A stretch of DNA of 64,000 bases from Eledone cirrhosa (taxonomy: Eukaryota): positions 122,078,001-122,142,000 of the forward strand of contig OZ024741.1 of the NCBI GenBank assembly GCA_964016885.1. Direction: 5' to 3'. The notes below the pieces were generated by a model. That model was not told where the DNA came from, did not search any database, and saw nothing but the letters and a program-made list of their open reading frames with translations. This document shows, in pieces, positions 9,979 to 23,082 of the stretch (within the stretch, counting starts at the first letter, position 1; each line of letters opens with the position of its first letter). The position numbers and the translations under genes are program-made.

Positions 9979-10561
9979 TTATATATCGACCATTATATAC
10001 AAGGGCCTCGTTTGCCTTAAAAATGTGATGGGTACAAACAACATTTGTTGATATTTAAAGGAGCATGTTTGTATTGCTTATGGAGCCTTTCCCGGACCCT
10101 ATCACATAGACAACATTTTACGCTAATTAAATTTTATATATTAAAAAAAAAATAAGCTTAAAAAGACTTATATCAAATAAATAAAAAAAAAACAAGACAT
10201 AGACGTTTGAAAAAGTGGGAGCGGGGATTTATCCCCTGGTACCCCGCTGAAACAAGTGCCTTGATTATATATATATATATATATATAAACGGAAAAAATG
10301 AAACGAAATTTCATTTCTCACTCTCAGTACGGCACTTACTTAAATTTAAGAATGTATGTATGTATACGTACATACATATATGTATACAGACGTACAGTAG
10401 TATGTATATATATATACATACATGCACACATATATATATGTATGTATGGATTCACCGAACATTTATTATAATACTCGGTGTGTTTATAAACAAACATTCC
10501 AAAATAAGCCGTACAGTATCTATCAACCATCGTTGCTCATTTGTTCAACACTGACAAAGGA

Positions 10562-10604
10562 ACGCTGTACTAGTTTCAAGCTTATTAGCTATCGTCAGCA
10601 ACGT
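10562..10604 (-). ncRNA. Minimal type I hammerhead (family B)
   Basis: acgttg-CTGACGA-t-agct-aata-agct-t-GAAA-CTAG-TA-cagcgt. Confidence 0.8.
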
Positions 10605-11130
10605 ATACCTTCCTGCCAGATGATTGAACGTCTGAAAGTATATACTTTCCTTATGCATATTAACGACTGAGAAGCCTAATTTGCATATCGAGTGAGTTAA
10701 TCGGCCAGGGTACCGAAAACGATAAACGGAAAAAAATGAAACGAAATTTCATTTCCCACTCTTAGTACGGCTGTTACTTAAATATAAGTATGTATACGTA
10801 CATACATATATGTATACAGACGTACAGTAGTATGTATATGTATACATACATGCACATCCATATGTACATATATATATGTGTGCATGTATGTATATATATA
10901 TACATACTACTGTACGTCTGTATACATATATGTATGTACGTATACATACTTATATTTAAGTAACAGCCGACGAAGAGTGAGAAATGAAATTTCGTTTCAT
11001 TTTTTCCGTTTATTGTTTTCGGTACCCCGGCCGATTAACTCACTCGATATGCAAATTAAGCTGCTCAGCCGTTAATATGCATAAGGAAAGTATATACTTT
11101 CAGACGTTCAATCATCTGGCAGGAAAGTAT

Positions 11131-11173
11131 ACGTTGCTGACGATAGCTAATAAGTTTGAAACTAGTACATCGT
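11131..11173 (+). ncRNA. Minimal type I hammerhead (family B)
   Basis: acgttg-CTGACGA-tagctaataagttt-GAAA-CTAG-TA-catcgt. Confidence 0.75.
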
Positions 11174-11400
11174 TCCTTTGTCAGTGTTGAACAAATGAGC
11201 GACGATGGTTGCTAGACACTACGGATTAATACGGGATGTTTGTTTACAAACACACCGAGCATTATAATAAATGTTCGGTGAATCCATACGTACATATATA
11301 TATGTGTGCATGTATGTATATATATATATACATACTACTGTATGTCTGTATACATATATGTATGTACGTATACATACTTATAGATATAGATATATATATA

Positions 11401-12761
11401 TTTGTCCACGATTGCCTGTGTTTTTACCTTTATGATTTTTTGTCTTTATTTTTCCTGTGTATACTCTCCCCTCCTTACGTTTTTCTGTTTCATTTTCCCT
11501 TCCCCGTCCCGCTTCACACCCCTGCTTTCTCATCCCTCCTCCTGCTTTCACACAACGCCCACCATGCCCAGCCTGAGATCCTTTCTCCACCAACTACACA
11601 CTAGCCTCAACCCCCCCCCCCCCTGCTATCTCCCCTCTGCCTTCAACTCTCCTACCTTCTCTTCGCCAAAACCCGGCACTCCAGCCACATCCATTTCCTC
11701 AGCCACTGCCTCCGCCTCCACCTTATCCCCCTCGGCTTCCGTCTACACTTCCACACTTCCCCCGCCGCTTCCCCCTCCACGCAACGTATCCTCACCCGAT
11801 CCTCACGCCTCCTAATGCGCAACTCGATCCGCGCCTCCCGTTCCACCCTCCGCAAACTTGATCACCAACTGATCCCCACCCTCCTCCGCCTTAACACCAC
11901 CTGCCACCCCCTCCTCGCCCAAGCCATCCTCTCCTTCATCCAAAACCTCAACCACGACCTCTTCTCCTTCCTCACCTCCACCAAAGCCCGCAAGCTACAC
12001 TCACTCCTCCCAACCACCCCATCCACCACCACCCGCCCATCTCCATGAGCCCACAACTCCTCACCCCTCCCTCGACCCACACCCCTACCCAATCTCCACC
12101 CTCCACCTCACCCCTCAACACACCCTCCCTTCCCCCCTCACACACCCAAACCCCATCACTTGTTGTCACCATACCCCCTGACCTCCCCCTCACCGCACCT
12201 GAGCGCTCACTCCTTAGTAGAGGCCTTCGCTTCATACCCCACACTTCGCACAGCGACGAGTTCCGCACCCGAACGGAAGTCGAGCGATTCGTGCGACGCA
12301 CGAAGCTTCAGGCACATTTCGGCCGAACGCCACCGGCTCCGAACGCCCCAGACCCGTTTCTCGCTCTGGGCCGACGACCATCTTCTTGGACGCCGGCCCC
12401 AGGGCAATTTAGCACCCTGGACGCGTTCGTCGATGCCAGCTGTAGCGCCGTAAATCGTTTCGACTTCCGCCACCGTTCCAAACGGAATAACATCTCACGA
12501 GGAGAACTCCTCGTTTTCCGCTCCCTCCGTAGCCGAGATGACATCGTCATCAAACTGCGGACTAGGGAGGTGCCGTGGTGGTGTGGCGCGCGGACCTCTA
12601 CACGGCCGAAGCCCTCAGGCAGCTCCGTAACCCCCTCTTCTACCGCCCTCTACCCTCCGATCCCACACCCCTCTACCAACAACAAGTTTCCTCCACCATC
12701 CAACACATTGTCTCCTCCTCCCTCCCCACCACCGCTTCCCACCTCATCGTCCGCACCCCTC
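11401..12761 (+). mobile_element. GC-rich Penelope-like element, 5' part of ORF (frameshifted, truncated before the RT core)
   Basis: HIHFLSHCLRLHLIPLGFR, LLSRGLRFIP, NNISRGE..LRSRDDIVIK and GGAVVVWRADLYTAEALRQL..FYRPLPSDPT are typical pre-RT Penelope motifs. Confidence 0.8.
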
Positions 12762-20294: not shown

Positions 20295-21630
20295 TCAAAT
20301 CAAGCCAGGTTTGTATTTGGAGAACGTAGCCTTGAGTCTGTGATTGCAATATAGAGTCCTTTCCGTTCTGTTGTTAAGAAGAGTATAATTCGATTTTAGT
20401 ATGTGAAATAGCTCCATATTGCATAATCGGCTGTAAGGCTGTCCTGCACGATATGCGGAAGCACTAGAGAGTTTTGTCCATTTCAAAGTGTATTGCAGAT
20501 TACTTTCGCGCAACTGCCAAATTGTATTGGCTAAGGTAGTTACGGAACGGTATTTGATGTTCTTCATCGAACTACGGTGTTGGTACCAACGAGATTTAAA
20601 AGTGGTAGAGGTACAGCCGATATAGTGACATCTTCGGTTATCCGATTCAACGGTGCATTGATACACCATATTGGATTCCATGCATTTGTTATTCAGAGGG
20701 CAACGATCAGGTAGGTTGCAGTTGCACTTATCAGCTCCTGTAGTATTATTATCTTGTACAGATTGCGTTAGGTTTATATGTGTGTCTGCTGCAGGAGGGT
20801 TTACATTCAGTGGTTGAGAGTTTGAGGAAGTGTTAATGTAGTTTGGGGTGCTTCGTGTGGATGTGCTGACTAATCGTTTGGAGTTAAGTTTTTTAATAAT
20901 TAGATCGAGATTGGGTGCTGTAGAATATGAAAGCTTAATAGACCTTAGATTTAGTATCTTAGCGTATCGATGTGTAGGAGGAAAATGTGTTTTGATTAAA
21001 TTGAAGAAAAGTGAGGAAATTTTAGGAGATGTTGAGGCATTGTATATTGGGTTGTACCAAAGGTAGTTACGATTCCGCTTTCTAGCTTGGTTGGGTTGTG
21101 TGCTTCTATTTCGACTATGCCTATGCGGAAAGTGTATGTTGTGTATCGTACCTATATTATTATTTATGCTGGTGCGTTGTGAGCCCTTATTTCTATATTG
21201 GTGTGCTGGATCTATGTACTCTATTTTGTCTTGGTACCCAGCCGCCTTAAGCGCGTTGTTATAGTAGTAAGCGTGCTCACTAAAGACCTGGGGGGTAGAT
21301 GACAGGCGTGATATTCTAAGGGAGATGGCCCGAGGGATAGACCGTATAACCGAGGGTGGATGATTAGATTTATGGTCAACATACATAATATATTCATTAG
21401 ATTTATGGAATGGGCGGATTTCCCCCGTCTCTAGATTAAATGTTACATCCAAGAAATTTATTTCAGTCAGGTTGTACTCAAAAGTAATGCTAAAACCTAG
21501 ACTGTTTAAAAATTCGCTAACTTGCTTACGTAATCTTTCTATTTTCTGGTTGTTTAGGTGTTTAGCTAAAAGGAGCGCATCGTCGCGGTAGATACCCCCT
21601 TGTAGATTGCGGAATTTTTTCTCTAGTGCT
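20295..21630 (-). CDS. Penelope RT C-terminus, linker and GIY-YIG endonuclease (5'-truncated, open frame)
   Basis: GGIYRDD, FLDVT, SNHPP, WYNP, KLSYS, CNC..CPL..C, VYQC..HYIGCT..FKSRW..H and a C-terminal LC..E..LLN..E..CNH. Confidence 0.88.
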
Positions 21631-22168
21631 TGAGCGATGAAGCTTGAGCCGATTATGCAATATGGAGCTATTTCACATACTAAAATCGAATTATACTCTT
21701 CTTAACAACAGAACGGAAAGGACTCTATATTGCAATCACAGACTCAAGGCTACGTTCTCCAAATACAAACCTGGCTTGATTTGATCCTGCGACTTCTGCT
21801 TTCCTCTATCTTCCTTCTACCTCCTCTATCTATCCCCATGGATTATTGCTATGCCTTCTATTAACCACATCTACCCTATTCAACATCTCCTCCTACATAC
21901 TTTACAAGTCACTTGGCCTAATCTCCCCTGCCTCCATCTATCATAGATCGTAAACCTATCAACGTCTACCATCTCTCTAGCACACACACACAGTTGGACT
22001 AGTCCATATCTAGACTTCATTATCATATTTTATCCTCCTCTCTGTTTTACCTCAACAACTATGAAAACCCCCCTATCTCTCTCGTCTTTGTCACATCCTC
22101 CTTCTTCTCTACTTCAACTTCACATGAATTCCTATAAAAACCTGAACATTCTGGTGCGGTAAACATAA

Positions 22169-22283
22169 TCTCTGATGATATGGGATCGATTGTGCATTGG
22201 ATGTCGAATGCTCTACTAACTATATAATATTATAGATGCAGCGAGATCTAGGCAAATTGATGTCTATTGAAACGTACGTTAGA
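22169..22283 (+). ncRNA. Hammerhead motif with a greatly extended stem II (mirror copy at 19792-19906, minus strand)
   Basis: tct-CTGATGA-t-atgg(g/a)atcgatt...aattgatgtctat-t-GAAA-CGTACG-TT-aga. Confidence 0.6.
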
Positions 22284-22437
22284 ACCGAATAAATCTCTTT
22301 TACTGCATATTTCTGTTCTTTTTAATTCTTTATATATATATTTCTATATATATATATATATATATATATATATATTTCTATATATATATATATATTTCTA
22401 TATATATATATATATATATATATATATATATATATAT

Positions 22438-23082
22438 GTATACGTACATACATATATGTATACAGACGTACAGTAGTATGTATATATATATATACATACA
22501 TGAACGTATGTATATATATACACACTACTGTACGTCTGTATACATATATGTATGTACGTATACATACATACATACTTACATTTAAGTAAGTGCCGTACTA
22601 AGAGTAAGAAATGAAATTTCGTTTCATTCTATTCCATTTATTGTTTTCGGTGTGCCCGGCCGACTGAACTCACTCGATATGCAAATTAGGCTGCTCAGCC
22701 GTTAATATGCATAAGTAAAGTATATAGTTTCAGACGTTCAACCATCTGCCAGGAAGGTATACGATGCTGACGATGGCTAATAAGCTTGAAACTAGTACAT
22801 CGTTCCTGTGTCAGTGTTGAACAAAAAGGTGACGTGGTTGCCTAAACACTGTACGGCGTAATTCGGGCTGTTTGTTTGTTTACAAACAAACAAACCGAGC
22901 ATTATAATAAATGTTCGGTAAACCGATACGTGCATGTATATATGTGTGCATGTATGTATATATATATATATATACATACTACTGTACGTCTGTATGCATA
23001 TATGTATGTGCGTATACATACATACTTACATTTAAGTAAGTGCCGTACTAAGAATGAGAAATGAAATTTAGTTTCATTCTAT
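22438..23082 (+). mobile_element. HHR repeat family B, ~1.3 plus units with a short inverted 5' piece
   Basis: Homologous to 10866-11379. (TA)n on both sides. Confidence 0.8.
22761..22803 (+). ncRNA. Minimal type I hammerhead (family B)
   Basis: acgatg-CTGACGA-tggctaataagctt-GAAA-CTAG-TA-catcgt, with a perfect stem I. Confidence 0.82.

Follow-up and report, generated by a model that had tools for sequence, protein, structure and literature searches.

A hammerhead-bearing repeat family of Eledone cirrhosa with a putative U6-type promoter and a Penelope-type insertion footprint

Here we describe family B, a repeat with three insertions in a 64,000-nucleotide stretch of the genome of Eledone cirrhosa (GenBank assembly GCA_964016885.1, contig OZ024741.1, positions 122,078,001 to 122,142,000 of the forward strand; hereafter the window). 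Family B is probably a high-copy, non-coding repeat of the retrozyme type, which likely carries a U6-type promoter of its own and has likely been copied into TA tracts by the reverse transcriptase (RT) and endonuclease (EN) of Penelope elements acting in trans. The basis of this reading is that family B has no coding frame of its own, a hammerhead ribozyme pattern per unit preceded by a TATA and by the upstream box of host RNA polymerase III (Pol III) genes, and arms that end at two fixed sites, usually one arm at each. The initial annotation of the window had described three partly tandem, head-to-head insertions related to a second repeat, family A; its observation is confirmed in part, and it overlooked the promoter identity of the box, the two-site rule of arm ends and an element of the Hydra clade of Penelope-like elements (PLEs) between copies 2 and 3.

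Self-comparison and reading of the window bear out three insertions with two arms each, which are joined 5′-to-5′ and direct their 3′ ends toward TA tracts (Table 1). Units in the window measure 437 and 422 bp, in agreement with the 422–437 bp given before, and units of 431, 444 and 466 bp occur outside it, the last in a subfamily, B4, that is distinct from the three represented by the window copies (B1, B2 and B3). The three unit pieces of copy 1 are different subfamily variants and its arms differ at 18/270, and the plus arm of copy 2 is 98.8% identical to its minus arm. The genome (3.0 Gb) is rich in TA tracts and PLEs, and exact matches to a B-specific 30-base pattern place at least 20,698 B units in it (control, 0). 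Four B loci were also met in control stretches that were taken at even spacing and total 300 kb, so that the three copies in the 64-kb window are ordinary for this genome. Most B loci are short and dispersed, only 23 of 201 A and B arms exceed two units, and the longest arrays reach >22 units; satellite-like B2 arrays of >16 and >22 units lie in opposite orientation at G000:C28:43.95 Mb and 44.44–44.46 Mb (L232–L235). Frames of at least 100 aa in family B, read without a Pfam scan, are short stop-free stretches crossing TA-rich DNA, and no PLE protein matches were found within B arms in 109 loci. Judged by its sequence, family B thus shows every defining feature of retrozymes that was put to the test, i.e. 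a hammerhead per unit, short tandem units and no coding capacity.

Arm ends were scored at 104 B loci (90 picked by query, less 2 duplicates and 10 windows that came from two long arrays, plus 26 taken in genome order). While 5′ ends are scattered, 3′ ends are fixed: 157 of 174 fall at one of two sites (86 at S1, 71 at S2, 17 elsewhere), and three more were cut by the locus edge. S1 lies after CATACTTA and S2 after TTTAT, about 56–63 bases apart. Moreover, the two arms of an insertion tend to use one site each. Among 54 two-arm junctions, 38 were S1+S2, five S1+S1 and none S2+S2, and 11 had one other or edge end, so that one-of-each pairing holds for 38 of 43 two-armed loci (P = 1.2e-7 against 0.5). 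The earlier statement that minus arms end at TTTAT is correct for copies 1 and 2 and for family A, and fails for copy 3, where the minus arm reaches S1 instead; the TTTAT end is a special case of the two-site rule. In family A, 8 of 9 two-armed loci are S1+S2 at sites homologous to those of B, and the junction overlaps by 2–8 bases in 8 of 9. Two Hydra families of this genome pair their ends likewise (8 of 9 and 12 of 13).

A TA tract of ≥8 lies beyond 140 of 182 outer 3′ ends of A and B, compared with 20 of 60 outer 5′ ends. Family B therefore displays the whole PLE-type footprint, namely an inverted 5′ arm, a partial tandem, a tail at one end and a microsatellite target. The Penelope enzyme is reported to cut and extend both DNA strands, with two internal RNA start sites that define the tail (PMC11167929), and almost all Hydra families are reported to insert into (TA)n, with the tail at one end (PMC8557442). 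Target duplications are masked by the TA tracts, and two rebuilt empty sites show small deletions. At these two sites, an A copy had entered a pre-existing TA tract of B and a B copy a non-TA site, which does not support TA tracts being made anew at insertion. One family A copy (L223) sits within the internal TA tract of a B4 copy; in this way B itself supplies a target for later insertions.

The B copies of the window contain four complete hammerheads of type I. The hammerhead of the B unit comprises CUGACGA, GAAA and GUA, a stem II of four pairs behind U10.1–U11.1, a stem III of two pairs within the palindrome ACUAGU, and an extended stem I, and in copy 3 the cut is predicted after GUA at 22797. 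The core is intact in 122 of the 143 B units that cover it, and 141 of 143 B cores have U10.1–U11.1 where family A has G–C. Over seven natural A and B copies the stems are 92% paired, with 6 of 13 pairs changed on both sides; slid versions of the structure collapse across the same copies, and none of 500 shuffles reaches the stem covariation score, which is inflated by relatedness according to the warning of the tool. Regarding the two features claimed initially, the change in stem I is real (U–G versus A–U), with a U–U mismatch at this place in the copy at 11131, and the ACUAGU palindrome is present in three of the four hammerheads, copy 2 having AUUAGU and a plus arm that starts inside the core.

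Self-cleavage of the B hammerhead is predicted from these models. In its fold of minimum energy the core pairs wrongly with stem III, which is to be expected of a dimer-type hammerhead; hammerheads with a short palindromic stem III are thought to cleave as dimers (PMC6765202), and U10.1–U11.1 is a known natural variant, with which cleavage is higher than with other mismatches (PMC3088659). Six segments have folding z-scores of -0.95 to -3.7, and circular monomers fold at -123 and -142 compared with -93 and -100 for shuffles, which is partly due to a TA-rich hairpin. An Rfam scan identified the family A hammerheads as HH9 at 38.6 bits, under the gathering score of 52, and no B hammerhead was among the matches listed (150 of 353); its microRNA matches in the window were rejected as TA-rich hairpins under their cut-offs.

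The extent of the arms bears on the template for cDNA. Of 175 B arms, 141 run across the site of predicted cleavage, where 5′ ends show no accumulation (8 of 73 within the range tested, P = 0.19). The template would therefore have been circular or uncut, and not, as a rule, a linear cleaved monomer; both a circle and a multimer left uncut agree with this, in a sample that favours long arms. Units of one locus share polymorphisms in B2 (9.5% and 15.6% mismatch versus 32.4% between loci) and in A (2.9% and 0% versus 36.8%), and B3 has no informative sites for this comparison.

The ‘octamer block’ that the initial annotation had seen in both families is indeed a conserved block, and it is better read as the U6-type upstream box of this genome. 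For this comparison the genome's own small-RNA genes were used, and a box matrix was built from five host Pol III genes, i.e. three unrelated U6 genes, the best U6atac gene and the single RNase MRP gene, in which TATG(C/G)(A/T)AAT(T/G)AG stands at -77, -78, -79, -78 and -78 with a TATA near -30. The box is lacking in three of seven distinct U6 upstream regions and five of six of U6atac, and the matches without it look like interrupted or retroposed copies. Upstream of the U1 and U2 genes the box is absent (matrix score ≤4.0 in eight regions) and other words are in common, which speaks against a promoter of the RNA polymerase II (Pol II) small nuclear RNA (snRNA) type in B. Those genes (L126–L153) carry AATTA near -91, TCAGT near -57 and TATA near -30, and a TATA in Pol II snRNA genes together with a separate upstream word looks unusual.

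In B and A the box scores 13.9–23.0 (0–2 of 1000 shuffles), compared with 13.9–21.5 for host genes left out one at a time, so that both families reach the level of held-out host genes. It sits 78 bases ahead of the hammerhead 5′ stem in B, the base at that offset being 11 bases before the core in B1 and B3, 3 in B2 and 23 in A, and the pattern of box followed by hammerhead core has 27,373 matches genome-wide (control, 1). For copy 3, the transcript is predicted to start between ~22751, by the TATA rule, and 22756, by the box rule. From its sequence context, the box is quite likely a promoter in use, and its use by Pol III specifically is somewhat less so.

Homology between families A and B extends over the whole unit. 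In their alignment, a check that had been proposed with the original claim, the local z is 16–18 and none of 500 dinucleotide shuffles does as well; without box and hammerhead core the score is still 112 versus 41±6 (0 of 300 shuffles), and similarity in the rest of the unit is significant (0, 0 and 1 of 300 shuffles), so that the A/B likeness is not a chance effect. Together with the end sites common to both, this whole-unit homology upholds the view that A and B belong to a diversified superfamily of non-coding ribozyme retroelements, although the class as such is already described, as non-LTR retrozymes, i.e. those without a long terminal repeat (LTR) (PMC7229834). Two further families, C (L242, L289–L291, L293) and D (L292, its only known locus), have box, TATA and hammerhead in the same order, with the G variant of the U6-type box and TATA at 32 and 29; C aligns to B (1 of 200 shuffles) and shows no alignment to A.

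We propose the following course of events. The box of one unit would start a transcript 11–16 bases ahead of the hammerhead core, and read-through into the next unit would copy the promoter of that unit, by which an external promoter becomes internal. Hammerheads, probably acting as dimers through the ACUAGU palindrome, would then cut the RNA to unit length, and the product would probably be circularised. A Penelope enzyme would cut both strands of a TA tract and make cDNA from S1 at one end and from S2 at the other, with the cut site passed on the way, either round a circle or on a multimer that was left uncut, and the two cDNAs would finally be joined 5′-to-5′ over a few matching bases. More tentatively, and with less than even confidence, families A–D may be regarded as self-transcribing ribozyme retroposons with a captured U6-type promoter, whose two-armed insertions would each record a Penelope dimer starting cDNA at two fixed sites of one RNA circle, with one start at either end of a double-strand cut. 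Such a promoter could be heritable via tandem read-through and hammerhead-driven circularisation, and would have its own tightened box-to-TATA spacing.

Several observations weigh against this account, and many of them concern the promoter. The distance from box to TATA is 31 in B, 32 in C and 29 in D, compared with 35–37 in host genes, and family A has only TATAAC, at 32; TATA thus lies 4–6 bases too close in all four families to be at host distance, and in insects this distance is tightly conserved (PMC1761439). Runs of T6–T7 directly precede S2 in B1 and B2, and T5 runs occur in A; host genes end on T5–T11, and such runs inside units would be expected to stop Pol III ahead of the next promoter. 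In each of the four families the box is also a hairpin arm, and by folding models RNA structure could be the cause of its conservation; box and core are not visibly better conserved among copies than adjacent bases. Among the sequence runs listed as containing B, none is on record as RNA. Four runs guessed to be RNA match only short AT-rich pieces. Of four others, one of unknown kind contains the whole unit at high depth, two contain parts at low depth and one, guessed to be RNA, has only the TA-rich block; none of these matches bears on expression.

Other points concern cleavage, template and insertion. Only one of nine predicted retrozyme dimers cleaved in vitro according to a 2026 preprint (10.64898/2026.07.22.740005). 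Within loci of B1, polymorphisms are shared weakly (19.8% and 25.2% versus 30.4%). Copy 1 of the window combines three variants as a mosaic, as could result from a mixed multimer, from two templates or from recombination at a later time. A-to-G changes are not in excess of T-to-C changes (29/33 in B1, 21/18 in B3, 12/10 in B2, 11/9 in A), so that B gives no sign of A-to-I editing. The S1 bin is ~23 bases wide and adjoins a TA-rich block, so that some S1 calls may be alignment run-out, and 78 of the 104 loci are best matches to long queries, with a bias toward arms of more than one unit. Hydra sequence is not significantly enriched near B (15 of 180 flanks versus 14 of 320, P = 0.075; P = 0.18 versus 6 of 139 TA-anchored controls), the tail of B measures 56–63 bases versus 141–144 in two Hydra families here, and by sequence comparison B has no relative in a pseudo-LTR (pLTR) among the sampled Penelope 3′ ends.

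The alternative that survives best, which we consider unlikely, is a Penelope-mobilised retrozyme whose U6-like box is no longer a promoter and persists as a hairpin arm, the RNA coming from Pol II read-through that starts in host transcription units or from use of the box by Pol II. It would explain the shortened spacing and the T runs inside the unit, and the hairpin is stronger in the four families (-7 to -13 kcal/mol) than in host genes (-2 to -5), with a partner arm that in family C follows a T/G change; yet between A and B the 5′ arm is identical at 12 of 12 bases whereas the partner arm differs, the TATA-like box lies at almost the same distance in four families, and an offset of 78, as in host genes, reaches the hammerhead 5′ stem in A and in B1/B3. 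As for Pol II, newt satellite 2 is described as transcribed by this polymerase from an snRNA promoter (PMC2220036, PMC6765202), but the different upstream words of U1 and U2 in this genome speak against such use here.

The helper and the origin of B have to be considered together with the independent, 5′-truncated PLE between copies 2 and 3. The element at 19597–22334 is placed in the Hydra clade, which is marked by a C-terminal EN, DKT, RWK, a CxCx5C linker and TA insertion, on the basis of motifs and by way of relatives: a full-length sister has DKT, CxCx5C and RWS, a related family has many intact 784-aa frames with RWK, and both end in TA. Pfam gave no family for the 468-aa frame of the window element. 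Among possible helpers of B the Hydra clade is the most likely candidate because of its TA targeting, abundance and footprint, although our confidence in it lies only a little above even, and other PLE types in the genome also end in TA. An arrangement in which B is part of the neighbouring Hydra element was rejected, since copies 2 and 3 are members of separate subfamilies (84% alike) and, at 29 sister loci of that element, B is absent from the termini but for one 67-base match; clear chimeric two-armed insertions of B and Hydra were not seen in the 11 junctions read.

Much less probable, indeed very improbable, is that B is the pLTR of an unsampled coding Penelope family, with its copies as truncated ends, a possibility raised when the family was first described. 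The inverted, tailed and TA-targeted architecture is the same as in coding Hydra elements, and 24 of 57 Xenopus retrozyme families match transposons (21 of the 22 being PLEs; 10.64898/2026.07.22.740005). But in 109 loci with flanks of 1.5–4 kb no frame with RT and GIY-YIG was contiguous with B, save at one isolated junction (L029), where a B arm starts ~100 bases past a Hydra frame on the same strand and without a TA tract, beginning mid-unit after the hammerhead. Hydra matches occur in 21 of the 109 loci, and except at L029 TA tracts or unrelated DNA lie between in the junctions read. Moreover, B arms consist of head-to-tail B copies, up to >22 units, without a common non-B sequence upstream, and against 20 clusters from 117 Penelope 3′ ends the highest z of B was 2.4, versus 15–18 for A against B. 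Descent of B from an extinct pLTR may nevertheless be considered. Least credible is a purely DNA-level repeat (satellite, fold-back or Helitron-like passenger) with a relic hammerhead and no RNA step, for which the long arrays on C28, the missing editing signature and the lack of a run on record as RNA could be cited, but which is at odds with the fixed 3′ and scattered 5′ ends, the one-of-each pairing and the A/B stem covariation, all matching a Penelope footprint, and with the short, dispersed nature of most B loci.

Some further observations on Hydra elements may be recorded. Both Hydra terminal repeats read (window 19597–20295, minus strand, and the 3′ end at L107) appear by eye to hold an oversized hammerhead whose stem II is long; it would lie ~55 bases ahead of the first end site, and the common word CCGGAATA follows in both. 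An older, broken Hydra-like element at 43522–45434 is ~65% alike to 20295–21701 over 350 bases. At two unrelated B loci (L030 and L299), B adjoins the same position of a Hydra-like sequence via a TA tract. At L120 (G000:C4:204565354–204571200), a Hydra element with an inverted arm lies between mirror-image B4 insertions; the mirror copies, with B4 insertion, TA tracts and unique flank, span ~2.3 kb and are 93–95% alike, as in a large fold-back duplicating host DNA.

The promoter of the Schistosoma Sm-alpha repeats, which are SINE-like and carry a hammerhead, is of the tRNA type, and the putative one of B is of type 3, with upstream box and TATA. In other respects Sm-alpha resembles our proposal for B, in that a unit is driven by the Pol III promoter of the unit before it, is freed by the hammerhead and needs the tandem to keep the promoter (PMC6765202, PMC2220036). 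Newt satellite 2 (Coats, Zhang and Epstein 1994, via PMC2220036 and PMC6765202) is, like B, a hammerhead tandem whose stem III is short and palindromic, and its internal promoter is of the snRNA type, as is the putative one of B; it is reported to be transcribed by Pol II, whereas the B box matches host Pol III genes (U6, U6atac and MRP) and not U1 or U2. The closest relatives in kind are the animal non-LTR retrozymes (Cervera and de la Pena 2020, PMC7229834; Li, Clavereau and Pollet 2026, 10.64898/2026.07.22.740005), which like B are non-coding tandems with a type I hammerhead per unit, number thousands of copies and coexist with PLEs; their units measure 150–450 bp in the former source (350–390 bp in mussel) and 51–972 in the latter. 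Retrozymes of this class lack LTR, primer binding site and polypurine tract, and their target duplications, if any, are of >4 bp. Cleavage and circles have been shown for coral, mussel and axolotl retrozymes and are predicted for B. Many Xenopus families have pLTR relatives, in contrast to B among the ends sampled. The retrozyme sources consulted name neither a promoter nor a fixed-end or inverted two-arm footprint, and B has both, the promoter being putative. Hydra-clade PLEs (Craig et al. 2021, PMC8557442) and PAc (Frangieh et al. 2024, PMC11167929) share with B the TA targeting, partial tandems, inverted 5′ arm and one-end tail; unlike B they have an RT/EN frame, and their tails are 30–40 bases in these papers and longer in the Hydra families here. 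The PAc hammerhead needs protein to cut and is dispensable in vitro (PMC11167929). In literature from which subscription papers were mostly excluded, we found no U6-type promoter in a retrozyme and no hammerhead repeats in cephalopods; Repbase, Dfam and supplements may list such families.

Table 1. Features of family B copies and neighbouring elements in the window (S1 and S2, fixed end sites)
Feature	Position	Strand	Details
Copy 1, minus arm	10285..10869	-	1.36 units; 3′ end S2 (TTTAT) at TA tract
Copy 1, plus arm	10856..11380	+	1.20 units; 3′ end S1 (CATACTTA)
U6-type upstream box, copy 1 minus arm	10676..10687	-	
Type I hammerhead, copy 1 minus arm	10562..10604	-	core and proximal stem I
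U6-type box, copy 1 plus arm	11048..11059	+	altered last base
Type I hammerhead, copy 1 plus arm	11131..11173	+	stem I U-U mismatch, stem II G-U
TA tract at 3′ end of copy 2 minus arm	17632-18759		1.1 kb
Copy 2, minus arm	18757..19297	-	1.28 units of 422 bp; 3′ end S2
Copy 2, plus arm	19297..19545	+	0.59 unit; start within hammerhead core; 3′ end S1
U6-type box, copy 2	19132..19143	-	B2 variant (position 11 A to G)
Type I hammerhead, copy 2	19026..19068	-	U-G pair in stem III
Copy 3, short minus arm	22425..22517	-	0.21 unit; in TA-rich block; 3′ end S1
Copy 3, plus arm	22484..~23086	+	1.37 units; 3′ end at S2 or few bases short
U6-type upstream box, copy 3	22678..22689	+	‘octamer block’ of the initial annotation; also 5′ arm of predicted RNA hairpin
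TATA-like box, copy 3	22721..22726	+	31 bases past U6-type box
Type I hammerhead, copy 3	22761..22803	+	stem I fully paired, U10.1-U11.1, two-pair palindromic stem III
Hydra-clade PLE, independent, 5′-truncated	19597..21701	-	between copies 2 and 3; 3′ terminal repeat to distal site
468-aa open frame of Hydra-clade PLE	20295-21701	-	placed by motifs
Inverted arm of same Hydra element	21647..22334	+	ends at proximal site, 144 bases before distal
Family A two-armed array, homologous to B	24525..31401		2.0 units minus (S2 end), 12.67 units plus (S1 end)
Second family A copy	57154..57581	+	0.91 unit

Other repeats are present in the window. At 57591–62061, within a TA tract of 7 kb, lie two short ends that are inverted relative to each other and bear hammerheads (core at 58383 on the minus strand and at 61260 on the plus strand). 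This type of end, to which 12761–12915 is related, also has CCGGAATA. At 4850–9323 there is a broken minus-strand PLE with RT pieces, a GIY-YIG match (PF01541) and a CxxC linker, which has 437-bp inverted ends containing a 124-bp tandem and probably belongs to another clade. Palindromic TA-associated elements were seen at 1287–1652, 17288–17586, 32787–33049 and 52752–52906, with a hammerhead-like core at 1545.

What is new in family B is the U6-type box and a PLE footprint that can be measured, while the class and the promoter-bearing precedents in newt and schistosome are known and limit the surprise. Mobilisation of retrozymes by Penelope enzymes has been published as a proposal, and the transcribing agent is unnamed in the literature consulted. 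Family B offers sequence handles on both, namely an end rule that matches measured Penelope RT start sites and a candidate promoter defined by host genes. The box comparison also defines the U6 promoter box of this animal, which is useful for guide-RNA expression. If the promoter works, family B would be a retroposon that passes on a Pol III promoter of the upstream type, something that is normally impossible for elements like short interspersed elements.

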